Positions 2,417 through 62,931 of a stretch of DNA of 64,000 nt are shown piece by piece. Location of the stretch: positions 18,492 to 82,491 of the forward strand of contig JANPJR010000030.1 in the NCBI GenBank assembly GCA_031425615.1. The letters run 5' to 3'. How positions within the stretch are numbered: position 1 is the first letter of the stretch; every line of letters starts with the position of its first letter. The notes beneath the pieces are model-generated. The model saw only the letters and a list, made by a program, of their open reading frames with translations. It made no database searches and was not told where the DNA came from. The translations under genes and the position numbers were made by a program. This stretch comes from Cytophagales bacterium (GTDB taxonomy: Bacteria; Bacteroidota; Bacteroidia; Cytophagales; Microscillaceae).

Positions 2417-2490
2417 GGGAGTTTAGCTCAGCTGGTTAGAGCATCTGCCTTACAAGCAGAGGGTCACAGGTTCGAATCCTGTAACTCCCA
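2417..2490 (+). tRNA. tRNA-Val (anticodon TAC)
   Basis: 74-nt cloverleaf read by hand: acceptor GGGAGTT/AACTCCC, D-arm GCTC...GAGC, anticodon stem TCTGC/GCAGA with loop CTTACAA (anticodon TAC), T-arm ACAGG-TTCGAAT-CCTGT, discriminator A. No CCA is encoded. Confidence 0.9.
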
Positions 2491-2499
2491 CAACAACAA

Positions 2500-2576: not shown

Positions 2577-2600
2577 TTCCCCTTTGGGAGTTAGGGGGCT
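2577..2600. repeat. GC-rich REP-like hairpin motif, copy 1 (TTCCCCCTTTGGGAGTTAGGGGGCT)
   Basis: One member of a family of about 10 copies in this window (see findings). It sits immediately after the stop codon of the 2603..3661 gene. Confidence 0.7.
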
Positions 2601-2602
2601 AA

Positions 2603-3661
2603 TTATTTACTCTTTTTCCCAAAAACCTCTTTTACACGCAGTTGAAGTGTAAAAAAATGTTTTCCTACCCCAATTTGGTGCGTACTATAACCATATTGAA
2701 AACTGTATTTTCGGGCATAAAACGCAAAACCAAAACTAAAACCACGTGTTCCACCAAGATTGCGAATTTTCATTTCACGATTTACAAGGTGATTGTAACC
2801 TGCTAATACATGAAATTTTGGTGAAAAAATAATTTCTGTGCCTACTACAAAATGCCTTGCAAGGTCATCAAAAAAAGTTTTTTTAGGAACATTTTTTTGT
2901 CCAGTCAAATCTACCGTATAATTTTGGAAAGGGTCAAGATACACAATATCCCATCTATGTAAATGATGGGCGGTAAGCGAAAACCGCACAGGCATATATG
3001 TAGGCTTGTAAGATACGCCAAATTGCACATCTATTGGGAGAGGGGTATTTTCACCTTGTAAATAATTTTTTACGGTAAAACCAGCATTCTGTACTGAAAG
3101 CCCTATTTTAAGGTCTTTTTTTGGGTGTTTGAATACACTACTTAATGTAAAAACCAATGCGTGTGCATTATAACTTTCAATCTGTGAAACCAAATAATGT
3201 ATTGCTCCGCCCATATAAAAATTGCCTTGTTTGATGCCATAACTTGCCATCATATCCCAATCCGAAGCCCTGAAATCACCCAAAACTGCTCCTGTTGCGT
3301 CAGTAAGTTGCATTTTGCCATAATTTACGCCTCTAATACCCCCCGAAAAAAGCCCTTTTTTGAATTTATCTGCATAAATAAATTGATATTGTCCTGCGTC
3401 AGCTTGCCAAGTTGCAAAACTAAATGAAGCAGTTTTTGCCAAAGAATCATTTGCAATAGCAGGATTATTAAAAATATTGTTAATGTCATATTCGCCACTG
3501 CTTACATTTACGCCACCAACCGCAGAAAGCCACGCAAAATGTGGATTTTGGGTAAAAGCAAAGCTATTTCTCCCGCCTATTTGTGCATTTGTGTTATGTG
3601 TTTGTGCAAAAAATAGTAAAAAATAAAGCAAAAAAAGATTAAAACTTTTAAGGTTTTTCAT
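2603..3661 (-). CDS. Outer-membrane beta-barrel protein with signal peptide, T9SS-associated type (PorQ/PorP-like); family not resolved
   Basis: ATG at 3661. Signal peptide ending ...NTNAQ. The length (~350 aa) and the alternating aromatic/glycine beta-strand pattern running to a C-terminal aromatic residue are typical of Bacteroidota PorQ/PorP-type barrels. Confidence 0.4.
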   Translation of the reverse strand: MKNLKSFNLFLLYFLLFFAQTHNTNAQIGGRNSFAFTQNPHFAWLSAVGGVNVSSGEYDINNIFNNPAIANDSLAKTASFSFATWQADAGQYQFIYADKFKKGLFSGGIRGVNYGKMQLTDATGAVLGDFRASDWDMMASYGIKQGNFYMGGAIHYLVSQIESYNAHALVFTLSSVFKHPKKDLKIGLSVQNAGFTVKNYLQGENTPLPIDVQFGVSYKPTYMPVRFSLTAHHLHRWDIVYLDPFQNYTVDLTGQKNVPKKTFFDDLARHFVVGTEIIFSPKFHVLAGYNHLVNREMKIRNLGGTRGFSFGFAFYARKYSFQYGYSTHQIGVGKHFFTLQLRVKEVFGKKSK

Positions 3662-11036: not shown

Positions 11037-11699
11037 TTGAAAGCGTTATTCAAAAAAAATCCTGTTTTTTTTTTCTTGTGTTTTTTATGGTGGACAGTAG
11101 GCGGAATTTTAATCCTCAATACAGAAAAAGGTACTTGGGAACTTTGGGTAAATCGTCATTATATGCCTTTTTTCAATACATTTTTTATGTATTTTACGCA
11201 CATAGGCGATGGATTGACATTTGCGATAGTCAATGTATTTTTGTGCTTTTTTGTGTATATGAAAGATCGAAAAAATACGCTTAAATTTTTTATTTTTGCT
11301 TTTTCGTCTTTTATCTTGACAGGACTTTTTACCCAATTTATCAAAAACTTTATATTTCCTGAGGCAGTTCGTCCTTCGGTAGAGTTGGCACATTATTTTT
11401 TACAACCTATTGCGGGTTTGGAATGGCAGGAATACAATAGTTTTCCATCTGGACATAGCACAAGCGTTTTTTCTATGGCATTTGTATTGTTGATTACTTT
11501 TTGTAGCAATAAAAATAATACTGAAAACCAATATAAAATTATTTTTTTTAATATTTTATTTGCGTCTGTGGCAATATTGGGAGCGTTTTCACGCATGTAT
11601 TTATTGCAACATTTTTTGGTGGATATTTATGTGGGAAGTTTGATTGGTTTTTGGGGGAGTATGGGAATTTGGGTGTGGATAAAACCAAAATTGGCATAA
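11037..11699 (+). CDS. PAP2-family membrane phosphatase
   Basis: The PAP2 motifs are present in order: FIKNFIFPEAVRP (KxxxxxxRP), PSGHS, and SRMYLLQHFLVDIYVG (SRxxxxxHxxxD). Multiple TM helices. The start is a TTG in the track ORF, so the start is uncertain. Confidence 0.75.
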   Translation: MKALFKKNPVFFFLCFLWWTVGGILILNTEKGTWELWVNRHYMPFFNTFFMYFTHIGDGLTFAIVNVFLCFFVYMKDRKNTLKFFIFAFSSFILTGLFTQFIKNFIFPEAVRPSVELAHYFLQPIAGLEWQEYNSFPSGHSTSVFSMAFVLLITFCSNKNNTENQYKIIFFNILFASVAILGAFSRMYLLQHFLVDIYVGSLIGFWGSMGIWVWIKPKLA

Positions 11700-30359: not shown

Positions 30360-30502
30360 TTTGATTAAAATTAGTCCCAGCCCCCAAAGGGACAAAAGGT
30401 AGTAAAAAAAAAGTAAATAGTTGTCAGTAATCAGTTTTTTCCCAGTAAAATACAAAACTAAAAAAAACTGAAAAAACTGACAACTGAAAAAACTAAAAAA
30501 CC

Positions 30503-31642
30503 CTATTTTAACAAATCTCTTGCAATAACGATTTTTTGAATTTCGGAAGTGCCTTCATAGATTTGGGTAATTTTGGCATCACGCATCATACGTTCCACAT
30601 GAAACTCTTTCACATAACCATAACCACCATGCACTTGTACCGCTTCGGTTGTAACGTCCATTGCTACTTGTGAAGCAAATAATTTGCATTGTGCAGCAGC
30701 AGATACATAATCTTGGTGTGCATCTTTGAGTTTGGCAGCGTGTAATGTAAGCAACCTCGCACAATTAATATGCGTAAGCATATCTGCAAGTTTAAATTGA
30801 ATGGCTTGGTGTTCAGAGATAGGTTTTCCAAATGCTTTGCGTTCTTTGGAATACTTTACAGAAAGCTCGTAAGCACCAGACGCAATACCTAACGCTTGTG
30901 CAGCAATGCCAATACGACCACCATTGAGGGTTTCCATCGCAAATTTAAACCCAAAACCATCACCGCCAATACGGTTTGTTTTTGGTACTTTTACATCTGT
31001 AAACATCAGCGAATGTGTATCAGAGCTTCTAATACCCATTTTATCTTCTTTTTTTCCCACTACAAATCCCTCTGTACCTTTCTCCACAATCAGCACATTG
31101 ATACCTTTGTGTTTGAGTTCAGGATAAGTTTGTGCAATCACAAGATAAATAGAGGCATTTCCACCATTGGTTATCCAGTTTTTTGTGCCATTTAGGAGGT
31201 AATAATCGCCTTTATCTTCTGCGATTGTTTTTTGGGAAGTTGCATCAGAGCCTGCCTCTGGCTCAGAAAGACAAAACGCACCCAATACATCTCCTTTTGC
31301 AAGTGGTACAAGATATTTACGTTTTTGTTCTTCATTGCCATATTTTTCCAATCCCCAGCACACTAAGGAATTATTGACTGACATTGCCACCGCAGCAGAC
31401 GCATCTACTTTGGCTATTTCCTCTAATGCCAACACATAGGATACGGTGTCCATGCCACTTCCACCATATTCGGTAGGCACCATCATACCCATAAAGCCCA
31501 ATTCTGCCATTTTTTTGATAGAACTGAAAGGGAATTTTGCTTCGTTATCACGTTCAATAATCCCTTCCCAAAGATTATTTTGGGCAAAATCACGTGCTGC
31601 ATCACGCACAGCTATTTGTTCTTCTGTAAGAAAATCCGTCAT
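30503..31642 (-). CDS. Acyl-CoA dehydrogenase (short/butyryl-CoA type), paralog 2
   Basis: MGMMVPTEYGGSGMD, LIVEKGTEGF, MRDAKITQIYEGTSEIQKIVIAR. A paralog of 13760..14917. Confidence 0.9.
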   Translation of the reverse strand: MTDFLTEEQIAVRDAARDFAQNNLWEGIIERDNEAKFPFSSIKKMAELGFMGMMVPTEYGGSGMDTVSYVLALEEIAKVDASAAVAMSVNNSLVCWGLEKYGNEEQKRKYLVPLAKGDVLGAFCLSEPEAGSDATSQKTIAEDKGDYYLLNGTKNWITNGGNASIYLVIAQTYPELKHKGINVLIVEKGTEGFVVGKKEDKMGIRSSDTHSLMFTDVKVPKTNRIGGDGFGFKFAMETLNGGRIGIAAQALGIASGAYELSVKYSKERKAFGKPISEHQAIQFKLADMLTHINCARLLTLHAAKLKDAHQDYVSAAAQCKLFASQVAMDVTTEAVQVHGGYGYVKEFHVERMMRDAKITQIYEGTSEIQKIVIARDLLK

Positions 31643-41665: not shown

Positions 41666-42007
41666 ATGAATGTAAAAGATTTCTTAAATGCACAACAAAA
41701 AAACATAGATGATCTGCTTACACAAGAGATGTCGCTGTTGATATTGGGTTATTTGAGCCAAAAAGATGAAGATTTTAAACAGTTTTTAGATTTTTTTTGG
41801 CAAGAAATTCACAAAAATACAACAGACTTAATCAAAAATGTACTTATACAATTACCAGAATATCAATACCTTGAAGCATATAGTAATGAACTACAAGATA
41901 ATGAGCAATATAATATATTGAAAAAAATCATTGCTGAAGCTGTTCAAATGCGTATTCAAGTGTCTAAATCTGTTGTAGAAGATTGGAGAAAACAAATAAA
42001 TGATTAG
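41666..42007 (+). CDS. Hypothetical small protein (113 aa)
   Basis: ORF with ATG. The stop lies within a 12-bp x3 tandem repeat. No domain recognised. Confidence 0.3.
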   Translation: MNVKDFLNAQQKNIDDLLTQEMSLLILGYLSQKDEDFKQFLDFFWQEIHKNTTDLIKNVLIQLPEYQYLEAYSNELQDNEQYNILKKIIAEAVQMRIQVSKSVVEDWRKQIND

Positions 42008-42033
42008 TTAAATGATTAGTTAAATGATTAGTT
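41998..42033 (+). repeat. 12-bp tandem repeat (AAATGATTAGTT)x3 spanning the stop codon of the 113-aa ORF
   Basis: Direct reading. Confidence 0.85.
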
Positions 42034-42246
42034 TTTTGCAACAATTTAGAAAATAATAATTTATTCGTATCTATTTAGCCTATATTTTAAAATGTTGTTT
42101 TGGAACACACAGACTAATAGTCTGTGCTACGAAAATACAAAAAAACGCTTTATCATTGTTAATTCCCCCTTTGAGGTTAGGGGGTTAAATAGTTACATTT
42201 ATTCAAATATAATAAACCAATACAATAACCTAATACAATTTGGAAA

Positions 42247-48509: not shown

Positions 48510-48654
48510 GATTATTTTTTAATGGATTTTTTTTTAATAAAATGGGTTAAAACCTATTGCAAATTATGTTTTTTGACTGAAAAAATAAATTACTGAAAAA
48601 ACTGATAACTTTTTTATGCGTATTTATTCCCCCTTTGGAGGTTATTGGCTATTT

Positions 48655-49968
48655 TTAAGTATGCAAAACCCCTGCAATCGTCCCTGTAAGCATACACGCA
48701 AGACTCGCAGCGAGCAGGGCATACAAACCATATTTGGAAAGCGTAGCTTGTTGGTTTTTTGCCATTTCGCCAATGCCACCAATTTGTATTGCAATAGAAC
48801 TAAAATTAGAAAATCCGCAAAGCGAATAAGTAGCGATAATAACGGTTTTTTCGTCAAGTGTATGCTTGATAGTACCCAAGGTTTGGTACGCAATAAATTC
48901 ATTAATAGCAGTTTTTTGTCCCAAAAGACTTCCCATTTGCATACTATCTTTATAATCCACACCCATCACCAACGCCAAAGGTTGTCCTATTTGTCCAAAA
49001 ATATACTCCAAAGAAAATTCTTTAAAAATACCTCCTGAAATCTGTTCTACAAAACTATTTAAACCCAATAAACCGCCTACACTTTTACACATAGCATTGA
49101 GCATGGCAATCAACGCCACAAATGCGAGGAGCATTGCCCCAACGTTGAGTGCCAAAAATAAACCATCTCTTGCCCCATTGGAAAGTGCATCAAGGATATT
49201 TGAGCCAATTTGTTCTTTGTTCATTTCAAGGTCTTTTTTGACCAATTCGGGTTGGGTTTGTGGCACAATAATTTTTGCAAAAACCACCGCAGCAGGTGCA
49301 TTCATAATAGATGCACTCAATAAATGTGCTGCAAAAATTGCTTTTTGTGTTGCATCATCTCCGCCCAAAAAATCTACATACATCGCCATCACACCACCTG
49401 CAATAGTTGCCATGCCCCCTGTCATAAGGCACATGATTTCGGAGTGCGTCATCGTAGCAATATATGGTTTGACCAAAAGTGGTGCTTCGGTTTGTCCCAT
49501 AAAAATATTGCCCGCAGCAGAAAGACTTTCAGGTCCTGAAAGTCCCATCGTTTTGCTCATAACCCAAGCCAAACCGTATGCGATTTTTTGCAAAACACCC
49601 AAATAGTATAAACCAGACGATAAAGTAGCGAAGAAAATCACCGTTGGAAGCACCCTAAATGCAATAATTGTCCCAAAATTATGTTTGTAATAAGGCTCTA
49701 CACCTGTGCCTGTTGTACCAAGTCCTCCAAATACAAACCTTGCACCGTTTTCAGAAAAATTTAAAAGATTGACGAAACCGTTGCCTATTACCTGAAATAT
49801 GGCATTTACTTGTGGCACTTTTATAACCAATAACCCAAAAAATATCTGCAATACCAACCCAATGCCCACAAGTCGCCAATCAATTGCTTTTCTATTGGTA
49901 GAAAAAAGATAAGCAATACCCACCAAAACGCCCATGCCAAAAATGCCACGTAGTATATCTAAAACCAT
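48655..49968 (-). CDS. nupC: Concentrative nucleoside transporter, NupC/CNT family
   Basis: The N-terminus (LVGIGLVLQIFFGLLVIK) and the conserved C-terminal core (GFSNFSSIAIQIGGIG..., TLSKYGLYALLAASLACMLTGTIAGVL) are typical of NupC. Confidence 0.85.
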   Translation of the reverse strand: MVLDILRGIFGMGVLVGIAYLFSTNRKAIDWRLVGIGLVLQIFFGLLVIKVPQVNAIFQVIGNGFVNLLNFSENGARFVFGGLGTTGTGVEPYYKHNFGTIIAFRVLPTVIFFATLSSGLYYLGVLQKIAYGLAWVMSKTMGLSGPESLSAAGNIFMGQTEAPLLVKPYIATMTHSEIMCLMTGGMATIAGGVMAMYVDFLGGDDATQKAIFAAHLLSASIMNAPAAVVFAKIIVPQTQPELVKKDLEMNKEQIGSNILDALSNGARDGLFLALNVGAMLLAFVALIAMLNAMCKSVGGLLGLNSFVEQISGGIFKEFSLEYIFGQIGQPLALVMGVDYKDSMQMGSLLGQKTAINEFIAYQTLGTIKHTLDEKTVIIATYSLCGFSNFSSIAIQIGGIGEMAKNQQATLSKYGLYALLAASLACMLTGTIAGVLHT

Positions 49969-50090: not shown

Positions 50091-50765
50091 TTAAAATTTG
50101 ATTTTTCCTGTGATAGAATTTACAAATTCCTCCAAACTTTTATTGTTTTTTAGAAATGGTTTTAAGGTTTTCATTTTTCGCATTTCATCTATGATTTTAT
50201 CTTTTTCTTTTTCTTTATTCACAATACCATTTTTTGATATTTTTTTTAATTCATGGTTCAATGTCCTTTTTGGGTCTGCGGATTTTGTTGTATTTTTTCC
50301 GAATTTTGCCAAAATCCATGCTTCTATTTCCTCAATCGCTATCGCATATAGCAGTTCATCTGCATAATTATTTTCAAGCCATTCATTTATAAAGTTTATG
50401 ACTTGATTTCGTAATTCTGTGGGGTAAGCATCGTTATTTTTTTCAGGTTTTTGAAAATCAAAATCTTGTTGGTCTATTTCCGCAGTATCCAAATGAATAA
50501 CCATATAATTTTGGTCATCTATGAAAAAAAACTTATCAAAATATGGTCTTGCGCCATTTTCATTTTTCATACACGCCTTTTTTACGCCTTGTAATGTACC
50601 TATTGTAGTTTCATTTGAATTTTCAGGGTTATTTTTATCTGTTTCGTCTGTTTGATTTTCAGGTTTTACCTGAATAATGTCGCTTTTATCTATCTTGCAA
50701 GCCTGCAAAATACCTGCAATTACTTCTTGGTCGCTTTTTCCTTCTGCAATAATGCCTACACGCAT
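50091..50765 (-). CDS. Small Toprim-like protein (DUF4276/RloB-like) partnered with the upstream ATPase
   Basis: N-terminal MRVGIIAEGKSDQEVI (E-G-x-x-D as in Toprim/OLD-family nucleases and DUF4276). Later acidic motifs (HLDTAEID, AIEEIEAWILA). Starts 17 bp after the ATPase stop. Confidence 0.5.
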   Translation of the reverse strand: MRVGIIAEGKSDQEVIAGILQACKIDKSDIIQVKPENQTDETDKNNPENSNETTIGTLQGVKKACMKNENGARPYFDKFFFIDDQNYMVIHLDTAEIDQQDFDFQKPEKNNDAYPTELRNQVINFINEWLENNYADELLYAIAIEEIEAWILAKFGKNTTKSADPKRTLNHELKKISKNGIVNKEKEKDKIIDEMRKMKTLKPFLKNNKSLEEFVNSITGKIKF

Positions 50766-50784
50766 AATTTTTTCTTTTTAAAGT

Positions 50785-51987
50785 TTAAAAATTTTTAGAA
50801 ATTGCCCCTAAAAAACCCCTTGTCCAAAGCTCTGAAAGTTTATATTTTTCGCCCAATTCATTTGTTTGGTTTGGTTTTATTTTGATGCGTTTGGTTTTGG
50901 TATGCCCATATTGGTTGCGTTTTACCTCAAATAAGCGAATTTCATCATCCAAAAGATTTAATCCATCAAGTATTGCAGGATTGTAGGTAGTAACCAATAT
51001 TTGTTTATCGTTTTCTTTGGCAAGTTTGCAGATTTCAGTCATAAGTTTGCGACAAAGATGCGGATTAAGACAGGATTCTATGTTGTCAATGGCAAAAAAC
51101 GAAGGTGTTTTGTGGCTTATCATCATGGTAAGATAAAAAAGCAGGTGTAAAATACCCTCGTTGGCGTTTTCAGATACAAAAACCAAATTTTTATCTTTGG
51201 GCATAAATTTATCCTTGAAATACAACAAAGATTTATTAAAATTTAGTTTGTGTCCCTCCAATTTTAATGTATCTTCTCCATCAACCAAAAAATCCTCAAA
51301 CCATTCCACAAAATAACTATAACTTTTGAGTTTTTCGGTTTCTTCTGGGGTTAAATTGGCTATCATTTCATCAAGATTTTCCCCAAAAAGCCCTTTTTGT
51401 GAATATGAAAAATTGCCTAATCCCCTAAGTGCTTGCGTATTGAGGGTGTAAAGGGCGTAATTGATAAGATTTTTAGCTATATTTTTTTCTTTTTCTTTAT
51501 TTTTTTTTACTATTTCAACAATATAATTCGCAAATCCTTTGTTCATTGCATCGTCATCTTTATTATTTTGTAATTTAAAAAGCATTTTTTCTAAAATATC
51601 ATTTTCTTGGGCAGAAATTTTTAAATTTTCACCCCAATAACTTTTGATGTATTCTAATTCGCTTGGTGTTGAAGTGCAATAAACTATTTTATTGTCTATT
51701 TTCAGGGTAATATCCACTGTATTTTTATTATCTTGATTTTTCTCATTCCCCTCATTTTCTTCAAACTGATTTACCATTAAAATAGGCTTTGTAACCCTAA
51801 TATTATTATTATGGAGAATATCACCATCAACATGGTCATATTTTTTTGAAACACTTGCAAAAGCCACCGCCTCCAAGATATTAGATTTTCCACAACCATT
51901 TTCACCAATAAACACATTCACACGCCCCAACGCAATGGTGTCACCAGCAATAGATTTGAAATTTTTGATGTGGATTTCTTCAATCAT
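50785..51987 (-). CDS. ABC-type AAA_21/AAA_15-family ATPase (SMC-like, OLD/AbiL-type N-terminal ATPase)
   Basis: IKNFKSIAGDTIALGRVNVFIGENGCGKSNILEAVAF (Walker A). Walker B/D-loop FAIDNIESCLNP. QILVTTYNPAILD resembles the TTHSP motif of this family. 400 aa. Confidence 0.8.
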   Translation of the reverse strand: MIEEIHIKNFKSIAGDTIALGRVNVFIGENGCGKSNILEAVAFASVSKKYDHVDGDILHNNNIRVTKPILMVNQFEENEGNEKNQDNKNTVDITLKIDNKIVYCTSTPSELEYIKSYWGENLKISAQENDILEKMLFKLQNNKDDDAMNKGFANYIVEIVKKNKEKEKNIAKNLINYALYTLNTQALRGLGNFSYSQKGLFGENLDEMIANLTPEETEKLKSYSYFVEWFEDFLVDGEDTLKLEGHKLNFNKSLLYFKDKFMPKDKNLVFVSENANEGILHLLFYLTMMISHKTPSFFAIDNIESCLNPHLCRKLMTEICKLAKENDKQILVTTYNPAILDGLNLLDDEIRLFEVKRNQYGHTKTKRIKIKPNQTNELGEKYKLSELWTRGFLGAISKNF

Positions 51988-52162: not shown

Positions 52163-52765
52163 ATGCGTATTTTACTGTTGTTTTTTAAGTTTTTTTGTTT
52201 GATTTCCGTGATTTTTTCCTGCCAACTTCCTGATGAACGTGCCATTGACACGCGTGAAGTAGCACAACAAGTGAAAGACCACAAACCAAAAAGAGTAACC
52301 GAAAATGAACTCCAAAAATGGCTTAATGTGAAATCCAATGTGTGGTTTGCCAAAATCCAACGCAGGTTATTAAAACAAATTACGCCTAATATTTCAGATT
52401 CCCTTTTAAGAAAAATACCTTTAAATCCTGAGTTAGATTCTTTGCAAAAAATCTACAAATTTGAACTTTTTTTTGTGTTGCCAAGCGACATAGAGAATCC
52501 AACAATGAAAGCAAGTTTTGACAAAATGCCCAAATACAAAGACGTTTTGTCTGCCCTCAAAACTTACCCACAAAATACGGAAGAAGTGCCAAATATTGTC
52601 AAAATCTCGTCTGCCTCAGCAATGGAAAAAGCCTACAAAACCAAAAACTATATTATACATTTTCCGCTACGTGTGGCTGAAAAAATGCGTGGAATTTGGG
52701 TAATTGTATATGAAAGAGAGCAGGCCATCAGGTTTTTTGATTATAAAGAAATATTATATAATTAA
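52163..52765 (+). CDS. Hypothetical lipoprotein (200 aa)
   Basis: ATG at 52163. The hydrophobic N-terminus ends in FSCQ (lipobox-like). No domain recognised. Confidence 0.4.
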   Translation: MRILLLFFKFFCLISVIFSCQLPDERAIDTREVAQQVKDHKPKRVTENELQKWLNVKSNVWFAKIQRRLLKQITPNISDSLLRKIPLNPELDSLQKIYKFELFFVLPSDIENPTMKASFDKMPKYKDVLSALKTYPQNTEEVPNIVKISSASAMEKAYKTKNYIIHFPLRVAEKMRGIWVIVYEREQAIRFFDYKEILYN

Positions 52766-52880
52766 TTGCCCCCTAATCACCAAAGAGGGATTTTTAAATA
52801 AAAAATACCAATCTATTTCCCCTTTTGAATTTACTCCCTTTGGGGGGGTGGGCTTTCACCACATTACAAAACTAATTTTT

Positions 52881-54062
52881 ATGCTAAAAATTTATACCAT
52901 CATTTTATTTTTAATCCTGCAACATGGATTTTTTTTGCAAAAAACCTTTGCACAAAAAGAAACTAAAAAAACAGAAAAGAAAACAGAAAAAAACCCTGAA
53001 AGACCAACAGAACTCAACGATACCATCAAAATCAATGAGGAAGCAAATGCACTCGCACAAGTAATGGCTGGGGTTGAAATAGAAAACAATAAAATAACCG
53101 AAAACGCTACTACAAAGCAACACGCAAAGGTTTTTGCAGAAAATTGGGAGAAATTGGAAAATACAAGACTTAAAAAATTACGTACTTGGCGTGATAATGA
53201 ACTCTCAAACATCAACCAAAATACCCAAAATCTATTTTATCCATTTTCAGGTCCTGATTTTCTCAATGCTTATATATTGTTCCCTAATTGTGATAATTAT
53301 TTGCTTTTTGGATTAGAAAAATCTGGCGAATTGCCAAAAATAGAAGAAATGAAAGGCGTTTTTTTGCAAAATTATTTGGCAAATGTGCGTAGTGCCTTGT
53401 CTGAAATTTTTTCAAGAAATTATTTCATTACACGCAACATGATGCAAAATGTATCTGCAAATCTCAAAGGTGTATTGCCTATTTTGGCGGTTTTTTTGGC
53501 AAAAACAGACAACGATATTATAAAAATTCAAAAGGTTTTTATAGAAAGGGGCGACAAATTAACCTATACTTCTTTGAAATTTCAAAGCAAATATAATTTG
53601 GTAAATGGACTTTACATTGAATTTAAAAACAAAAAAAAGAATAAAATCCAAAAAATGTATTATTTTGGAACTGATTTTCAAGATAAATCTATGGTAGGAA
53701 AACCAGAATTGGTACAGTTTATCAAAACCTTTGAAAATGTTACTACTTTGACCAAATCTGCCTCGTATTTGTTGCATGGAAGCGATTTTAGCACAATCCG
53801 CAATTTGGTTTTATCGCAAAGTGATGCAGTTGTGCAAGATGATACTGGCGTGCCTTTTCGTTATTTTAAACCTGCGGAATGGGAATCACAATTTTATGGC
53901 AAATACGCCAAACCTGTTAAAGATTTTAATTATGGTTATCAGCAAGATGTTGCCACAAAATTTAATACTGACAAAAGCATAAAAGCCATTGATTTTACGT
54001 TTGGGTATCATTGGTGGACAGACAAAAGTAGCGTGTTTAGGTATGTAAAGAAAAAGAAATAG
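52881..54062 (+). CDS. Hypothetical secreted protein (~393 aa)
   Basis: ATG at 52881 (MLKIYTIILFLILQHGFFLQKTFAQ signal peptide). The track ORF's 5' extension from 52704 merely translates the REP-like GC-rich motifs. Confidence 0.45.
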   Translation: MLKIYTIILFLILQHGFFLQKTFAQKETKKTEKKTEKNPERPTELNDTIKINEEANALAQVMAGVEIENNKITENATTKQHAKVFAENWEKLENTRLKKLRTWRDNELSNINQNTQNLFYPFSGPDFLNAYILFPNCDNYLLFGLEKSGELPKIEEMKGVFLQNYLANVRSALSEIFSRNYFITRNMMQNVSANLKGVLPILAVFLAKTDNDIIKIQKVFIERGDKLTYTSLKFQSKYNLVNGLYIEFKNKKKNKIQKMYYFGTDFQDKSMVGKPELVQFIKTFENVTTLTKSASYLLHGSDFSTIRNLVLSQSDAVVQDDTGVPFRYFKPAEWESQFYGKYAKPVKDFNYGYQQDVATKFNTDKSIKAIDFTFGYHWWTDKSSVFRYVKKKK

Positions 54063-54120
54063 AAATAGACCGCCAATCACCAAGGGGAATAAACAGCCTT
54101 TAACTGAAAAAACTAACAAC

Positions 54121-55347
54121 TTATACCATTTCTATTCTACATGATAATAGCGTAATATCATCATTGTAAGGTACATTTTGCCTAAAATCATCTAATTTTT
54201 GGATTAAAGATTCGTGCAAATCTATCAAATGTGTGTGTCTATTGGCTTTTAAAAATTCCAATAAACGCTCATCACCAAACTGTTCGCCTTGCGGATTATT
54301 CAGTTCTGTAACACCATCAGTAAAATGAAAAAGATAAAAATTTTTCAAATTATTAATGATTGTTTCCTCCAAAAATGGCAAAGGCTCAAATATACCCAGA
54401 ATCGTAGTACCTGTATCCAATATGTGTGTATGGTGGTGCTGAAAATCAAATAAAATAGGCGGATTATGCCCTGCATTGATATAGGTTAGCGTTTGTGTAG
54501 TGCTATCATACAATCCTATAAAAAATGTAATAAAATGCTCTCCTTGTGCATTGCGATAAATAGAATGGTTGAGTGCTTCCACAATTTGGCGAAGTTGTGT
54601 AGTTTGTCGCACCAACGTTTGCAAAGATGCTTGAAAATTGGACATCAACAACGCTGCGGGAATGCCTTTGCCTGATACGTCAGCAATGCACCAAAGGTGT
54701 TTATCTGCATCTATTACAATATAATCGTAATAATCACCTCCAATCAAATAATGTGGAAAATAAGTTGCTTTGATTTTAATTTTTTTATTAAAAGGCAATT
54801 TTTTTGGAAAAAGCAAACTTTGTACTTGTTGTGCGATTTGCATTTCACGTTGCAATCCTGCTTGTGCGATTTGCTCACGTACAAGTTTTTTGTTTTCTAT
54901 TGCCACCAAAATCACATTTGTAAGTGTTTCTATGAGGCGTGTATCAAAAGGTTCTGTATTGCGAATTTCTTGGGGATTAGGATTAAAAAATAAATATGCT
55001 AAGATTTTATCTTTGTGAAAAACAGGAATTACGATTTCAAAAACTTGGAATTTTTTGTCTTTAAAATCAACGTCTTTTGTATAAGTAAGGTTTTTAATGG
55101 ATAACAAAGGCGTTTGTTCCAAAGGAAAATTACTAAAATTAAATGTCGTACCAAAATTAACTTTGCACGCCCATTCTTTGTCCCACACATATAAAGCAAG
55201 TTTTTCCAGTTGTAATGTACCACGCAAGGTAAATTTATACATAGCATACAAAGAACTTTCAGGCATATTATTATTAATTGCCTCTGTAATCTCCAAAATA
55301 GCGTCTAATTCTAATTCTTTGCGTTGAAATTGTGCCTTAAAATCCAT
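54121..55347 (-). CDS. PP2C-type (SpoIIE/RsbU-family) serine phosphatase with N-terminal GAF-like sensor domain
   Basis: C-terminal PP2C motifs: GGDYYDYIVIDADKHLWCIADVSGKG..., HFITFFIGLYD..., INAGHNPPILF, FHFTDGVTE. Confidence 0.8.
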   Translation of the reverse strand: MDFKAQFQRKELELDAILEITEAINNNMPESSLYAMYKFTLRGTLQLEKLALYVWDKEWACKVNFGTTFNFSNFPLEQTPLLSIKNLTYTKDVDFKDKKFQVFEIVIPVFHKDKILAYLFFNPNPQEIRNTEPFDTRLIETLTNVILVAIENKKLVREQIAQAGLQREMQIAQQVQSLLFPKKLPFNKKIKIKATYFPHYLIGGDYYDYIVIDADKHLWCIADVSGKGIPAALLMSNFQASLQTLVRQTTQLRQIVEALNHSIYRNAQGEHFITFFIGLYDSTTQTLTYINAGHNPPILFDFQHHHTHILDTGTTILGIFEPLPFLEETIINNLKNFYLFHFTDGVTELNNPQGEQFGDERLLEFLKANRHTHLIDLHESLIQKLDDFRQNVPYNDDITLLSCRIEMV

Positions 55348-57873: not shown

Positions 57874-60800
57874 TTATTCTAAATTTTTGTTTATTTTTTT
57901 GCTTTTTGCAAAATACACATACATTGCAGGAATTACATATAGCGTAAGCACAAGCGAAAAAAACAATCCACCTACAATCACTACGCCCAAAGGCACACGA
58001 CTTTGCGCCCCAGCACCCAACGCCAACGCAATAGGCAACGCCCCCAAAATAGTGGCAAGTGAAGTCATCAAAATAGGTCTTAAACGTGCCACAGCACCTT
58101 CAAGCATAGCATTATATTTGTCTAAGTGGTCATGTTCTTGTTTTTGATTGGCAAATTCTACCATCATAATTCCATTTTTTGTAACCAACCCAATAAGCAT
58201 AATCATACCAATTTGCGAAAAAATATTTAAGGTTTGACCATAAATCCAAAGCGAAAACAACGCCCCAGCCAACGCCAAAGGCACAGTAAAAAGGATAATA
58301 AAAGGGTCAATAAAACTCTCAAATTGGGCAGCAAGAATCAAATAAATCAATACCAACGCCAATATAAATGCAAAAGAAGTATTGCTTGCACTCTCTGCGA
58401 AATCTCTTGAAGGTCCTGAAAGGTCAGTATTGAAACTATCGTCTAATAGTTTTTTGCCAATTTTTCGCATGGTTTCTATGCCTTCACCAAGTGTTTTATT
58501 GGGGGCAAGGCTGGCACTTATGGTGGCAGATTTGAAACGGTTAAAGTGAAACAATTGCGGTGGATTACTGATTTCTTGCATTTTTACCACATTGTCAAGT
58601 TGTATCATTTCGCCACGTGAATTGCGTACATAAAAAGATTTCAAATCCAACGGTTCATCACGGTTATTCCTATCTACTTGTGCAATTACTTGGTATTGCT
58701 TGCCTTTCATAATAAAATATCCTAATCTTCTGCCACTCAAAGCAAGTTGGAGAATATTATTGATATCCAATACCGAAATACCCAATTCAGTAGCTTTTAG
58801 GCGGTCAATGGTAATTTCTAACTCGGGTTTATTAAATTTCAAATTGCCATCAACATTGCCAAAAGTGCCACTTTTGCGGGCTTCTTCTAAAAATTTTGGA
58901 AGAATTTCTTGTAATTTTTGAAAATCAAAATTTTGGATTACAAACTGCACAGGCAACTGAAAACCTGCGGAAAGGCTTGTAGAAATTGTTTGCTCTTGGT
59001 TTGGAAAAATACGTGCTTCGGGATAACGCCTAAAAATTTTGGTCAATTTTTCGTATATTTGTTGTTGTGAAAGCCCCCTTTCTTCAGGGTCTTTTAGCAC
59101 CAAATTAACAAAACCCGAATTGCCACTACCTGCTGCCCCAAATGAAGGTGAAGTACCACCAAATACCATGCGTTGCTCAGGCACACTGTCCAATACAACT
59201 TGTGTAAGTTTGGTAATGAGTTTTTCCATGTAATCAAAATCCGTTCCTTCAGGAGCGGTTACAGGTGTGCGAATAACACCCCTATCCTCCAAAGGAGCAA
59301 GCTCGGATTTGAGGCTTCCACCTACAAAGTAAATTACCCCAAAACATCCTACAACCAATACCCAAGCAATCCATTTTATATTAAGAAAAAATGACAAACT
59401 TTGTCTATATCCATTGTCCAAAGCCTTAAAAAATGGTTCTGTAAAATGATAAAACCAAGAACGTTTTGTGCTATTGCCCCCAAGATATACATTCAATACA
59501 GGCGTAAGTGTCAAAGATACAAAAGCAGAAATCAATACCGCCCCAGCTACCACAATACCAAATTCACGAAATAGTCGCCCTGTAAAACCTTGTAAAAAAA
59601 TCACTGGAATAAACACCACCGCAAGCGTAATAGAGGTAGAAATTACCGCAAAAAATATTTCTTTTGAGCCTTCTATAGTAGCGTCCCATTTAGATTTACC
59701 TTCTTCTATTTTTTTAAAAATATTTTCTGTAACCACAATCCCATCATCTACTACCAATCCTGTAGCCAACACAATACCCAACATCGTAAGTACATTGATG
59801 GAAAACCCAAAAACATACATCACAAAAAAAGTGCCTATCAAGGACACAGGAATATCTATCAATGGACGAATCGCCACAACCCAATCCCTAAAAAATAGAT
59901 ACACAATCAAAATTACCAATATTAAGGCAATAATAAGTGTTTCTGCTACTTCTTCAATAGATTTGCGAACAAACTTGGATTTGTCAATGCCTACATCAAT
60001 AATAATATCAGCAGGCAATTCTTTTTTTATTTGTTCAAATCTTTTATAAAAATCATCTGCAATCTGAACATAATTAGAACCAGGCTGTGGAATAAGTGCT
60101 AAGGAAACACCATTTACATTATTGCGTTTTATGGCAGTTTCTTCATTTTCAGAGCCTAAAATAACCTCTCCTACATCTTTAAAGCGAATAATTTGGGTAT
60201 TATTTTGGCGAATAATCAACTCCTCAAAATCTTTTTCAGTGAGCAAACGCCCAAAAGTTTTTACCGTAAGTTCTGTGTTATCACCTCTTATTTTTCCGCT
60301 TGGGAGTTCAATATTTTCTCTGTCTAAGGCATTTTTAATGTCTTGAATAGTAAGACTGTATGCAGAAAGTCTCGCAGGGTTAATCCAAAGACGCATAGCA
60401 GGTCTGCGTAATCCAAAAACTTGTACTTGGCTAATACCTTTGATGGTTTGTAATTTTTCCACAAGTACATTTTCTGCAAAATCACTTAATTCTACTACAT
60501 TTCTTGTGGTACTTTGCACAGGCATAAAAATAATAGGGTCACCATTGGCATCAGCTTTTGCAACCACAGGCGGAGCATCTATATCTTGTGGCAGGTTGCG
60601 GACTGCTTGTGATACTTTATCACGTACATCATTGGTTGCTTGTTCCAAATCTACACCCAAATCAAATTCTACGGTAATATTACTTGAACCCAACGCACTC
60701 GCAGAAGAAATACTTTTGATGCCTTGTACGCCATTGATAGCACGCTCCAAAGGCTCTGTAATTTGTGATTCTATAATGTCAGGGTTTGCCCCTGTGTAGG

Positions 60801-60948
60801 CAGTTCTTACACTGATAGTAGGTGGGTCAATCGCAGGATATTCACGCACACCAAGATAATAATACCCAAGTCCCCCAAAAAGGATTATCATAACATTCAT
60901 GACAACCGCAAAAACAGGGCGACGTACAGATAATTCACTTATATTCAT
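57874..60948 (-). CDS. RND-family efflux transporter permease (AcrB/HAE1-like), no adjacent MFP or OMF genes
   Basis: 12-TM RND topology with two large periplasmic loops. Conserved GLVVDDGIVVTENIF-type motif region and a C-terminal TM bundle. ATG at 60948 (MNISELSVRRPVFA...). The track ORF extends to 60993. Confidence 0.9.
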   Translation of the reverse strand: MNISELSVRRPVFAVVMNVMIILFGGLGYYYLGVREYPAIDPPTISVRTAYTGANPDIIESQITEPLERAINGVQGIKSISSASALGSSNITVEFDLGVDLEQATNDVRDKVSQAVRNLPQDIDAPPVVAKADANGDPIIFMPVQSTTRNVVELSDFAENVLVEKLQTIKGISQVQVFGLRRPAMRLWINPARLSAYSLTIQDIKNALDRENIELPSGKIRGDNTELTVKTFGRLLTEKDFEELIIRQNNTQIIRFKDVGEVILGSENEETAIKRNNVNGVSLALIPQPGSNYVQIADDFYKRFEQIKKELPADIIIDVGIDKSKFVRKSIEEVAETLIIALILVILIVYLFFRDWVVAIRPLIDIPVSLIGTFFVMYVFGFSINVLTMLGIVLATGLVVDDGIVVTENIFKKIEEGKSKWDATIEGSKEIFFAVISTSITLAVVFIPVIFLQGFTGRLFREFGIVVAGAVLISAFVSLTLTPVLNVYLGGNSTKRSWFYHFTEPFFKALDNGYRQSLSFFLNIKWIAWVLVVGCFGVIYFVGGSLKSELAPLEDRGVIRTPVTAPEGTDFDYMEKLITKLTQVVLDSVPEQRMVFGGTSPSFGAAGSGNSGFVNLVLKDPEERGLSQQQIYEKLTKIFRRYPEARIFPNQEQTISTSLSAGFQLPVQFVIQNFDFQKLQEILPKFLEEARKSGTFGNVDGNLKFNKPELEITIDRLKATELGISVLDINNILQLALSGRRLGYFIMKGKQYQVIAQVDRNNRDEPLDLKSFYVRNSRGEMIQLDNVVKMQEISNPPQLFHFNRFKSATISASLAPNKTLGEGIETMRKIGKKLLDDSFNTDLSGPSRDFAESASNTSFAFILALVLIYLILAAQFESFIDPFIILFTVPLALAGALFSLWIYGQTLNIFSQIGMIMLIGLVTKNGIMMVEFANQKQEHDHLDKYNAMLEGAVARLRPILMTSLATILGALPIALALGAGAQSRVPLGVVIVGGLFFSLVLTLYVIPAMYVYFAKSKKINKNLE

Positions 60949-61317
60949 TTGATAGTTAAAAAGATAGTATTTGTTTTGTTGTTGTTTTTTCAAAAAAACC
61001 TTTTTATAAAATTATAAGTTCAATCAAACATTGGCTAATGGTTGAAATAGCATTTTTTTAACAAAAAGAACACCATAAAACCAAAAGAAATATTGTATTC
61101 AATGTTGTTCTAAGTTTGTAATTTTTTTCAAAACTTTGATTTTTAATGTTTTTTTAGAAAAAAACCACTCATTCTATCGTTTTCTGTGTTAAAAATACAA
61201 ATTGATGTGAATTTATAAAAACTGACAACTTAAAAACTGATAACTGACAACTTGGGTTAATTTATTTTCATTTTATTTAAAAAAAGTATATTTTTGCTTT
61301 TTAATTACAAAAAAATT

Positions 61318-62817
61318 ATGGCAAAAAAGATAGAAATCACACCTGAACAAAAACGTTTTGAGGAAATTATTGCACACGCAAAAGCTTACGGTTTTGTATT
61401 CCCTTCAAGCGAATTGTATGACGGTTTGCAAGCAGTATATGACTACGGACAAAACGGTGCGCAACTCAAAAATAACCTCAAACAAGTGTGGTGGCGTGCT
61501 ATGACACAAATGAACGAGGACATCGTGGGTATTGATGCAGCAATATTTATGCACCCTGAAGTGTGGAAAGCGTCTGGACATGTGGATAATTTTAACGACC
61601 CAATGACCGACAACAAAGATAGCAAAAAACGCTATCGTGTAGACCACCTAATTGAAAAAAAAATAGACGCACTCAAAGCTGAAAATAAAACTGAAGAAGC
61701 CCAAAAATTAGAGCAAGAAATGGAATCATTGCTCAAAGTAGAAAATTTTGAAGGATTATACAACCTGATTGTTGCCCAAAATATCAAATGTGAAATATCT
61801 GGTACTTGTAATTGGACAGAAGTAAGGCAGTTTAATCTCATGTTTTCTACGGAAATGGGTGCAATAGCTGACGAAAATAGTAAGATTTATCTGCGTCCTG
61901 AAACTGCACAAGGTATTTTTGTTAATTTTCTAAACGTGCAAAAAACAAGCGGTAGAAAAATTCCTTTTGGTATTGCTCAAATTGGTAAAGCATTTAGAAA
62001 TGAAATTGTAGCAAGACAATTTATTTTTAGAATGAGAGAATTTGAACAAATGGAAATGCAATATTTTGTACGCCCAACAACCGAAATGGACGCTTACAAT
62101 CGCTGGAAATCAACTCGCATGAATTTTTTACACGCATTAGGCATCAATCCTGAAAAATTGCGTTTTCATGACCATATCAAACTCGCCCATTATGCCAATG
62201 CTGCGGTGGATATTGAGTATGAATTTCCGTTTGGATTTAAAGAATTGGAAGGCATACATTCACGCACTGATTTTGACCTTACACAACATCAAAAACATTC
62301 ACGCAACAAAATTATATATTTTGACGAACAAGTAGAGGACAAAGACAAACAACGCTACACACCTTATGTGGTGGAGACTTCCATAGGTGCGGACAGATTG
62401 TTTTTGGCAATTCTCTGCGAAGCATATACCGAAACAAAAGGTGTTGATGCCAAAGGCGAAGAAAAAACACGTCTTTTTCTCAAACTTCACCCTGCGATTG
62501 CGCCTATTAAAGTGGCGGTTTTCCCATTATTGAACAAAGACGGTTTGCCTGAAAAAGCAAGAGAAGTATTTGAAATGTTGCGTTATGACCACGAAACTTT
62601 GTATGAGAATAGAGGTGCAATAGGCAAAAATTATACACGTATGGACATGATTGGTACGCCTTATTGCGTTACGATTGACCACCAAACATTGGAGGACAAC
62701 ACTATTACGCTTAGGGACAGGGACACTACTGACCAAGTACGCATTAATATTGTAGATTTGCCTGCAATAGTGGAGGAAAAAGTATCTTTGAAAAATATTT
62801 TGAAAAAATTAAAATAA
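61318..62817 (+). CDS. glyQS: Glycine--tRNA ligase, dimeric class II type (GlyQS)
   Basis: Class II motif 2 (FRNEIVARQFIFRMREFEQMEMQYF), motif 3 region, and a C-terminal anticodon-binding domain. ATG at 61318. The track ORF begins at TTG 61294. Confidence 0.9.
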   Translation: MAKKIEITPEQKRFEEIIAHAKAYGFVFPSSELYDGLQAVYDYGQNGAQLKNNLKQVWWRAMTQMNEDIVGIDAAIFMHPEVWKASGHVDNFNDPMTDNKDSKKRYRVDHLIEKKIDALKAENKTEEAQKLEQEMESLLKVENFEGLYNLIVAQNIKCEISGTCNWTEVRQFNLMFSTEMGAIADENSKIYLRPETAQGIFVNFLNVQKTSGRKIPFGIAQIGKAFRNEIVARQFIFRMREFEQMEMQYFVRPTTEMDAYNRWKSTRMNFLHALGINPEKLRFHDHIKLAHYANAAVDIEYEFPFGFKELEGIHSRTDFDLTQHQKHSRNKIIYFDEQVEDKDKQRYTPYVVETSIGADRLFLAILCEAYTETKGVDAKGEEKTRLFLKLHPAIAPIKVAVFPLLNKDGLPEKAREVFEMLRYDHETLYENRGAIGKNYTRMDMIGTPYCVTIDHQTLEDNTITLRDRDTTDQVRINIVDLPAIVEEKVSLKNILKKLK

Positions 62818-62825
62818 AAAAAATG

Positions 62826-62922
62826 CCCCTGACCCCAAAGGGGAATAAGTCCAAAAGTGGAATAAATACACTTAATCATTATCATTCTTTAATTTATTGT
62901 TCCTCCTTTGGGGTTAGGGTCT
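62826..62922. repeat. Pair of inverted REP-like GC-rich hairpin motifs (~100-bp palindromic unit) downstream of glyQS
   Basis: GCCCCTGACCCCAAAGGGGAATAAG at 62826-62849 and its inverted counterpart TTCCTCCTTTGGGGTTAGGGTC at 62900-62922. Confidence 0.7.
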
Positions 62923-62931
62923 TCTATTCTC

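Follow-up and report, generated by a model that had tools for sequence, protein, structure and literature searches.

A REP-like GC-rich palindromic repeat at open reading frame boundaries of a Cytophagales contig and of other Bacteroidota

Why does DNA with a GC content of 32.5% carry a conspicuous GC-rich motif again and again at the edges of its genes? The question is raised by a 64,000-nt stretch of a Cytophagales contig (GenBank assembly GCA_031425615.1, JANPJR010000030.1; hereafter the window), whose glycyl-tRNA synthetase (GlyRS) is nearest to those of metagenome-assembled genomes (MAGs) named Cytophagales, Microscillaceae, and Raineya. An earlier note on this DNA had described about 10 copies of such a motif and likened them to repetitive extragenic palindromic (REP) elements. 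We scanned both strands of the window by edit distance with a 25-mer master sequence (AGCCCCCTAACCCCCAAAGGGGGAA) at a cut-off of ≤7 edits, which yielded 10 sites, against an average of 0.2 and at most 1 in 60 dinucleotide-preserving shuffles of the window; at ≤5 edits, six sites were observed and none in the shuffles. Thus, the motif family is real and non-random, and within the window it is far commoner than composition predicts. All ten positions listed earlier carry the motif, and nine of the 10 master-sequence sites coincide with that list, the exception being a site at 59276. Nine of the 10 also lie outside long open reading frames (ORFs), as expected of an extragenic element. The 24-mer consensus first proposed turned out to be a worn form of the true one: at ≤3 mismatches it matches the copy at 2577 alone, so the family is loose, and we dropped it as a query in favor of the cross-genome master. 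Likewise, the "partial" copy reported at 52816 is merely a C/T-rich fragment beside a degenerate copy. The window copies, about nine in number, are worn versions of a palindromic unit of about 25 bases that is common to many Bacteroidota.

The master sequence reads (A/T)AG-CCCCC-TAA-CCCCC-AAA-GGGGG-AA-(T/C)T. Going forward, we refer to the strand reading CCCCC-TAA-CCCCC-AAA-GGGGG as the C-form and to its complement as the G-form. When one genome per species was scanned with a pattern fitting the two best window copies (CCCCCTAA-N3-5-CAAAGGGGRA), at least 118 stretches matched. By record title, about 112 of the matches listed come from Bacteroidota, and they span the Flavobacteriales, Cytophagales, Chitinophagales/Saprospiraceae, and Bacteroidales, including Flavobacterium, Maribacter, Lutibacter, Aequorivita, Cytophagales MAGs, Marivirga, Fibrella, Chitinophagaceae, Saprospiraceae, Prevotella, Paludibacteraceae, and others. 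Among the matches listed, a single "Fibrobacter sp." MAG accounts for three of those from outside the Bacteroidota, a Chloroflexota MAG for one, and an unclassified MAG for two. In the same set, the free gap of the pattern is nearly always CCCC, and the flanks are unrelated. Indeed, a sequence logo of 100 exact copies confines conservation to positions −3 to about +24, that is, to (A/T)-A-G, the 22-mer, and A-(T/C)-T, and the common variants alter just the 3-nt spacers between the blocks (TAA to CAA, TAG, or CAG; AAA to GAA). No exact copy occurs in PLSDB (7.3 Gb of plasmids) or in 5,426 complete Escherichia coli genomes, and these two controls support a restricted distribution. Of the REP-like family proposed earlier, then, the palindromic, GC-rich character stands, and the genome-specific character of a REP does not, with a master 22- to 27-mer common across Bacteroidota orders. 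At gathering score, Rfam finds only a tRNA-Val in the window, and a permissive Rfam scan of a perfect pair of copies returns generic long-hairpin matches far below threshold. In the freely searchable literature (queried for motif strings, peptides, Bacteroidetes REPs and their transposases, the Flavobacterium transcriptome, and origin structure, with subscription literature outside the scope), we found no description of the motif.

Copies are arranged in a fixed way, both toward each other and toward genes. Among 52 adjacent pairs (arms <200 nt apart), 46 run C-form then G-form, none runs G-form then C-form, and six are tandem. Their spacers measure 8–177 nt and are not conserved, differing even inside one genome. 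Of the exact C-forms, about 32% are followed within 200 nt by a partner at ≤4 edits, and a further 11% have a more divergent one, often CTCCCTCCCCTTTGGGGAGGG. In a census of 180 copies at ≤2 edits, a long ORF ends at the 5′ edge of the C-form in 54 copies, 46 of them at offsets of −8 to +3, where −8 means that the ORF terminates at the motif's own TAA; an ORF ends beside the G-form in only six. An ATG-started long ORF begins within 20 nt after the G-form in 31 copies, with a peak at 2–8 nt, and after the C-form in nine. Solo arms follow the same rule, with 30 of 44 stop-adjacent cases lying within 5 nt of the stop, and solo copies inside ORFs read as the C-form in sense 20 times and in antisense twice. 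The outer end of the arm (AG-CCCCC) faces the neighboring ORF, and for this reason the C-form follows stops and the G-form precedes the next start; for pairs, this polarity follows from the single fixed arrangement. The C-form sometimes supplies the stop codon itself, through its own TAG or TAA. The copies do abut stop codons, as claimed, but this is merely half of a stricter rule, which places C-forms at stops and G-forms at starts. A slippery heptamer (CCCAAAG) serving a programmed frameshift was also considered and was rejected because the relevant frame includes the motif's TAA.

The repeat comes and goes among relatives. Unselected DNA amounting to 329 kb (80 purE loci plus two relatives of the window) holds one weak match, compared to 10 sites in the 64-kb window; most lineages thus have few copies, and some have amplified the element. 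Copy density by lineage runs from near zero to about 1 per 6 kb. In six motif-selected Flavobacterium genomes, purE starts 5 nt past a G-form, which itself comes after a second hairpin (AAACCCTACTNACCCCTAGTAGGAAT), and the motif is found upstream of purE in none of 80 metagenomic relatives (L144–L223; PurE identity 76–97%). Similarly, there is no motif downstream of glyQS in two relatives (L002 and L003), both of which have lost synteny. In the closest relative compared (L002, GCA_013297825.1, GlyRS 89% identical), the region downstream of glyQS (11510–11639) is without a C5/G5 motif and holds instead a long palindrome of 7-nt units (AATGGTGAATGGTAAATGG ... CCATTTACCATTTATCATT). Flavobacterium also has G-forms ending 2–8 nt before the ATG of purE, a thiolase, an acyl-CoA dehydrogenase, and clpB, and the successive junctions of one operon each carry a pair. 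Here, the G-form is part of a composite, in which it is joined to another conserved hairpin (AAA(A)CCCTAYTNACCCCTARTAGGAAT) and followed by CT(A/G)AT-ATG, and which precedes unrelated genes, namely purE, clpB, the thiolase, the acyl-CoA dehydrogenase, and the gene after dut (L005, L018, L025, L062, L069, L072, L091, L102, L106, and L116).

Copying of a whole pair is seen in the MAG JAAYPC (labeled Fibrobacter sp.), where arm, 49-nt spacer, and arm recur four times in unrelated flanks; the unit of about 97 bp is identical from AG-CCCCC to GGGGG-C (L081, L090, and L104), and JAAYPC is the only sampled genome in which arm-spacer-arm recurs as one unit. Copies have also entered proteins. For most Flavobacteriaceae, the sequence of one loop in the aspartyl-tRNA synthetase (AspRS) is GELNAVAQHKEF (12 aa); some lineages carry there a clean insert of 7 to 10 aa with the G-form-encoded peptide TPPSGVGGL (…TPPSGVGGLGF, 19–22 aa), and another clade has the C-form-encoded CPLTPKGGT (CPLTPKGGTFGF, 12–15 aa). 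In-frame copies are likewise found in IleRS and UvrA. Two junctions were compared between Flavobacterium species, that of dut in three species and that of thiolase/acyl-CoA dehydrogenase in two; the arms on both sides are identical, while the spacer has substitutions or indels or is unalignable, and the flanking codons have synonymous changes. A third species has a variant C-form (CCTCCCCCAACCCCTCCAAATGAGGGGAG) in which the T and A changes are still complementary. Within this small sample, the invariance of the arms speaks for selection, gene conversion, or recent re-insertion.

Folding separates intact pairs from worn ones. A perfect pair forms an uninterrupted 25-bp stem (−56.8 kcal/mol, z −7.7). 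Two window loci had been said to carry inverted pairs, and both do, but only the one at 62821/62900 folds strongly, forming a long hairpin (−39.5 kcal/mol, z −5.3); that at 52766/52832 is decayed and folds no better than shuffles (−24.1 kcal/mol, z −0.3). The hairpin ascribed to each individual copy is weak, since single arms reach −6 to −13 kcal/mol and are not distinct from shuffles.

We give a probability of about one half to the reading that the motif is a non-autonomous palindromic repeat, similar to REPs and their hairpin-forming doublets (REPINs) or to MITEs (miniature inverted-repeat transposable elements), that was amplified in this lineage and is now decaying. Its unit is one arm of about 25 nt, occurring alone or as a C-rich-then-G-rich inverted pair around an unconserved spacer. 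Most likely it behaves as a small mobile repeat: orthologous junctions gain and lose it, most Bacteroidota have few copies, and certain lineages, this one among them, have amplified it; it can be copied as arm-spacer-arm and occasionally lands in frame in tolerant protein loops, and most copies in this AT-rich genome are decaying toward AT. Some trans factor would copy or read it, and we infer that mobility caused its spread. A transcript across an intact pair would fold into an intercistronic hairpin of 22–25 bp, which could affect processing, stability, or translational coupling; RNA-level effects of this kind are plausible at intact pairs. Short palindromic repeats of the REP type are normally private to a species, and the identity across orders together with the stop/start rule points to a conserved copying or reading factor.

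A number of observations weigh against this reading. Letter-perfect conservation across orders would need either a reader that is itself conserved, or gene conversion, or horizontal spread on repeated occasions. Of the perfect arms, about 55% are solo, with no recognizable partner, and the stop-adjacency of these solo arms comes on top of the pair arrangement and is not explained by random insertion. In the MAG JAAFIN, pair spacers differ within the genome, so most pairs are not simple copies of one element. No target-site duplication is present at pairs or at the JAAYPC units, where AG...CT belongs to the inverted repeat. A linked gene for a REP-associated tyrosine transposase (RAYT) had been suggested as a check, and a regular-expression search, the only one made, found no RAYT-like ORF (HUH...Y..NP) in the window or in about 1.2 Mb of loci. 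The AspRS loop of one clade is replaced by the motif at unchanged length. Finally, the 22-mer recurs in phage replication origins of other phyla (see below), which points to a DNA-level role that a mobile-repeat model does not predict.

How well does the motif fit the known repeats? Like the bacterial interspersed mosaic elements of E. coli and the REPINs of Pseudomonas, which are imperfect palindromes of 20–40 nt in many extragenic copies, it occurs both singly and in inverted doublets of one set arrangement, at 3′ gene ends and intercistronic sites, often near stops, and with a lineage-specific copy number. It also shares a short conserved foot 5′ of the GC-rich part, here (T/A)AG. However, the REP foot is GT[AG]G, and the logo of the motif gives A/T-A-G; REPs and REPINs have a linked RAYT gene (a Y1 HUH transposase), and the regular-expression search showed none with the motif; and the spacers of motif pairs are not conserved within a genome. 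REPs, and MITE ends too, normally differ between species, whereas the motif is letter-perfect across orders in the ~112 Bacteroidota stretches among the matches listed. The REPs of Bacteroidetes that belong to RAYT subclass 2.6 have sequences different from the motif, which is also absent from the published Bacteroidetes REPs in the supplement of the same paper (PMC6006769). The features that define a REP are therefore not those of the motif, which lacks the GT[AG]G foot and species specificity and differs in sequence from the subclass 2.6 REPs; nor does the REP idea predict copies next to direct repeats in phage initiator genes. Even so, we regard "REP-like" as a fair working analogy, since among known systems the motif seems to work most like a REP or REPIN.

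Resemblance to MITEs lies in the terminal inverted repeats around a short non-coding core and the defined outer ends, with the four whole ~97-bp units of JAAYPC (49-nt core) in unrelated flanks as the clearest case. But the motif lacks a target-site duplication, most pairs have unrelated cores, and over half of the arms are solo. A MITE also has a parental insertion sequence (IS) with the same ends, and none was found for the motif: arms lying 0.3–4 kb apart enclose ordinary genes, with no transposase or parental IS among the ORFs inspected between them (no genome-wide search was made). The MITE of Cardinium is an IS982 derivative unrelated to the motif.

GC-rich palindromes in AT-rich DNA, occasionally in frame in genes, are also known as the mobile GC clusters of yeast mitochondria and the Rickettsia palindromic elements (RPEs). 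To our knowledge, neither has a transposase of its own. GC clusters and RPEs are restricted to an organelle or a genus, RPEs are 100–150 bp long, and we know of no stop/start abutment rule in either. The attC sites of integrons, too, are imperfect inverted repeats with a variable centre that follow the stop of one ORF and precede the next start, and, read from the consensus, CCCTAAC ... GTTAGGG of the motif fits six of seven positions of each attC core site (RYYYAAC ... GTTRRRY). Unlike the motif, however, the attC stem is imperfect, with an unpaired spacer and extrahelical bases, and a perfect motif pair is fully complementary; motif copies flank housekeeping genes across the chromosome (dut, purE, glyQS, and aspS) rather than cassette arrays, solo arms are common, and no integron integrase came to light, though no search was aimed at intI.

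If the motif is not a mobile repeat, it might instead act in cis as an RNA element of the host, located where cistrons meet and maintained by a conserved reader, for example the ribosome, an RNase, or an RNA-binding protein; we regard this as a tentative alternative. The C-rich arm would lie within reach of the terminating ribosome, and the G-rich, Shine-Dalgarno-like arm would cover the next start region, so that a pair would act as a hairpin for translational coupling or for processing, and the 3′ end would be shielded by a solo arm. The strict polarity (54 against 6 at stops, 31 against 9 at starts, and 20 sense against 2 antisense among solo copies within ORFs) is what such an element would show, as are the solo arms within 5 nt of the stop, the G-forms 2–8 nt before the ATG of the four Flavobacterium genes, and the pairs at successive junctions of one operon. 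The arms are invariant where spacers and synonymous sites diverge, variation falls in the 3-nt inter-block spacers with the T/A block variants complementary, and the long hairpins are very stable. On the other hand, most of the Bacteroidota DNA sampled has few copies or none (the single weak match in 329 kb; none at 80 purK-purE junctions), most window copies are decayed, one window pair no longer folds, and single arms fold like shuffles. The polarity would also arise automatically from the fixed pair arrangement plus ORF abutment, and copies in phage initiator genes in two reading frames are unexplained. Bacteroidota, moreover, make little use of Shine-Dalgarno pairing.

The phage copies came as a surprise. 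BLAST against phage genomes gave 16 weak-to-good matches, 10 of them inside replication-initiator genes. Planktothrix phage PaV-LD (L224, HQ683709 2074–2901) has the exact 22-mer in a replication-related gene, after four direct repeats (iterons) and an AT-rich stretch. At the corresponding position, three further phages have near-identical versions: Stenotrophomonas phage BUCT708 with one extra base, a Klebsiella phage whose C runs are C6, and Cronobacter phage phiES15, in its gene O, with runs of C6 and G6. Exact or near-exact copies are found at the phage loci L224, L225, L226, and L227. The order is the same in all four phages, iterons, then the AT-rich stretch, then the motif, as in origins of the lambda type, which lie within the initiator gene. 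In IMG/VR, 22 stretches contain the exact 22-mer, and in at least eight of them (5–6 distinct phages), it lies in sense inside initiator-like ORFs, again after direct repeats and an AT-rich stretch (IMG/VR loci L123, L124, L127, L129, L132, L136, L137, L139, and L141). The N-terminal domains of the initiators vary (HTH_36, DUF1376, or none recognized), and the motif is read in two frames, giving PPNPQRG or PLTPKGG. Because the reading frames differ, it is the DNA rather than the peptide that is conserved. The hosts include Cyanobacteria, Gammaproteobacteria, and others with no assigned host, and in the 5,426 complete E. coli genomes, chromosomal near-matches lie solely in prophage replication genes. 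The 22-mer is not confined to Bacteroidota. The phage copies may be a functional origin component, or they may be the same repeat landed in a linker of the initiator gene that is insertion-tolerant, AT-rich, and often single-stranded. Two same-orientation copies 5–6 kb apart in viral contigs were considered as att sites, and this idea was rejected on their unrelated flanks.

Taken at their broadest, these copies raise the doubtful possibility that C5-N3-C5-N3-G5 is a general nucleic-acid signal, a new class of conserved cis-element rather than one lineage's repeat. The 22-mer would then serve two purposes, showing where unwinding ends in the origins of phages of Cyanobacteria, Proteobacteria, and others and where ORFs end or begin in Bacteroidota; its reader could be a component that all bacteria share, such as primase, helicase, RNA polymerase, or the ribosome, or it could act through an unusual fold of its own, as two competing hairpins or a fold-back triple structure. 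A narrower version, which we consider unlikely, holds that the motif is a DNA-level structural or replication signal identical to the GC-rich unit beside the AT-rich unwinding region of iteron-type phage origins, for example, a single-strand hairpin that marks the unwound edge or directs priming, read by machinery common to bacteria or acting via its own fold, and that it was secondarily scattered in Bacteroidota chromosomes. An identical or near-identical 22-mer after iterons and an AT-rich stretch in several phage families and host phyla argues for it, from the exact copy of PaV-LD and its counterparts in BUCT708, the Klebsiella phage, and phiES15 gene O to the at least 8 of 22 IMG/VR stretches in initiator-like ORFs; so do the differing reading frames and the restriction of E. 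coli chromosomal near-matches to prophage replication genes. The layout of block, 3 nt, block, 3 nt, block would permit two alternative hairpins and, in principle, a fold-back triple structure. In a strict architecture search (X-loop-rc(X)-loop-rc(X), with rc for reverse complement) made as a covariation test, CCCCC alone stands out, so the triple-block structure gains no independent support from it. Against a replication signal, the copies in the window and in other chromosomes stand at ordinary gene junctions, without iterons and with a gene-related polarity, and copy number by lineage varies from near zero to about 1 per 6 kb. In addition, no role for the element in any origin is described in the searchable literature, and the phage copies may themselves be insertions into a tolerant, AT-rich linker. 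Whichever reading holds, the recurrence beside iterons ties a chromosomal repeat to replication biology, a link apparently undescribed before, and this 22-mer in phage origins, the master sequence shared across orders, and the outer end facing ORF boundaries are the more interesting facts about the family.

It is very improbable that the copies are ordinary intrinsic (Rho-independent) terminators with stems that are similar by chance. They do stand at gene ends, the long hairpins are stable, and CTTTT follows some pairs in other genomes (L094, L100, L103, and L143). However, between 44 and 64 kb of the window, no copy has a sense-strand terminator-like site with a U-tract, and counts of terminator-like sites equal the shuffle expectation, which bears out the earlier remark that the motifs are unlikely to be simple terminators. 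The flank logo gives just C-T-T after the G-form, many copies lie 2–8 nt before operon-internal starts or within ORFs, a canonical terminator stands separately beside several solo arms (L052, L058, L071, and L126), and terminator stems have no phylum-wide sequence conservation. Scarcely credible is a DNA uptake sequence of the Neisseria or Haemophilus kind, spread by biased uptake and recombination: one short sequence across a large clade in unrelated flanks, inverted pairs downstream of genes, some coding-region copies in permitted frames, and the AspRS clade replaced without length change would suit it, but the density is far too low and uneven (1 weak match in 329 kb, against about 1 copy per kb for uptake sequences), uptake sequences follow no orientation rule like the strong gene-related polarity seen here, the insertions are clean and length-adding, arm-spacer-arm is copied as a unit in one genome, and the motif is present in phages of non-Bacteroidota hosts.

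In the window itself, five C-forms begin 0–4 nt after a gene-sense stop, with 3–9 nt between the stop and the first C run. The best window copy, TAGCCCCCTAACTCCCAAAGGGGAA at 2577..2601 (− strand, 2 edits from the master), has four bases between the TAA stop (2605–2603) of ORF 2603–3661(−) and its first C run; a tRNA-Val gene lies beyond it at 2417–2491(+). The copy at 48627..48651 (TAGCCAATAACCTCCAAAGGGGGAA; − strand, 4 edits), whose first C block is decayed, begins 3 nt past the TAA stop (48657–48655) of nupC (48655–49968, −) and is also found in locus L001. Directly after the TAA stop (52763–52765) of ORF 52163–52765(+) comes the left arm of pair 1, TTGCCCCCTAATCACCAAAGAGGGA (52766..52790, +, 5 edits). 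A strongly decayed C-form, ATAGACCGCCAATCACCAAGGGGAA (54065..54089, +, 7 edits), begins 2 nt past the TAG stop (54060–54062) of ORF 52881–54062(+), a gene convergent with a SpoIIE-type phosphatase gene (54121–55347, −). The left arm of pair 2, AATGCCCCTGACCCCAAAGGGGAAT (62821..62845, +, 5 edits), begins 3 nt past the TAA stop (62815–62817) of glyQS (61294–62817, +), and its first C run lies 8 nt after that stop.

Four G-forms lie 7–60 nt upstream of a gene-sense start. The right arm of pair 2, which reads TTCCTCCTTTGGGGTTAGGGTCTTC on the + strand (62900..62924, −, 4 edits), stands 7 nt upstream of ATG 62932 and is separated from its partner by a 54-nt spacer. A degenerate copy at 30371..30395 (+, 6 edits), a C-form on the + strand and hence a G-form in the sense of the − strand genes, lies about 11–14 nt upstream of the likely TTG start (30359) of a DppB-like permease. 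The degenerate right arm of pair 1, TTACTCCCTTTGGGGGGGTGGGCTT on the + strand (52832..52856, −, 6 edits), lies 24 nt upstream of ATG 52881, with a pair spacer of 41 nt. The near-perfect copy at 42163..42187 (−, 3 edits; TTCCCCCTTTGAGGTTAGGGGGTTA on the + strand) has no recognizable partner; a WYL-domain gene begins about 60 nt further on, at ATG 42247. The tenth site, 59276..59300 (+, 6 edits), is a motif-like stretch inside the long ORF 57874–60993(−) and is a doubtful member, possibly due to chance.

These positions matter for annotation. The public call for the 52881 gene begins upstream (window 52704–52880; L001 4842–6194) and so translates the repeat pair, while ATG 52881, the first after the pair, opens an N-terminus resembling a signal peptide. 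That N-terminal extensions of ORFs are translated motif, as had been supposed, is thus true of at least this case. More generally, the motif misleads gene calling, since ORFs are extended through it, stops are supplied by it, and SPLTPKGG-like peptides are added to real proteins; knowing it improves start and stop calls in Bacteroidota.

Other short repeats occupy junctions near the motif and elsewhere. Read on the − strand, an inverted repeat of CAGT-type short units (TCAGTTGTCAGTTTTTTCAG ... CTGATTACTGACAACT; 30405–30500) occupies the gap between the stop of gene 30503–31642 and the degenerate G-form at 30371. Similar palindromes of the CAGTTTTCAGTC type occupy purK-purE junctions in Flavobacteriaceae. 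In the roughly 200 nt upstream of purE at the 80 loci (L144–L223), purK and purE are separated either by 2–5 nt or by a junction filled with repeats from stop to start, the fillers being lineage-specific inverted or tandem repeats of short units, such as AAAGATTGAAA.../...TTTCAATCTTT, CACAGATTTCACA, CATTCAACATTCAAC, and GGGGTTTGGAGTTTGG; junction-filling palindromes look like a general class in Flavobacteriaceae. Elsewhere in the window, AAATGATTAGTT occurs three times in tandem around the stop of ORF 41666–42007 (41997–42035), and the copy at 42164 is preceded, at a distance of about 40 nt, by a separate hairpin (CACAGACTAATAGTCTGTG; 42107–42127). Lastly, between nupC and the 52163 gene, two adjoining genes at 50091–51987(−) match the PADLOC candidate anti-phage system PDC-M31, with an A protein of 400 aa, an AAA_15/AAA_21-type ATPase (E 1.8e-80), and a B protein of 224 aa (E 1.7e-11).

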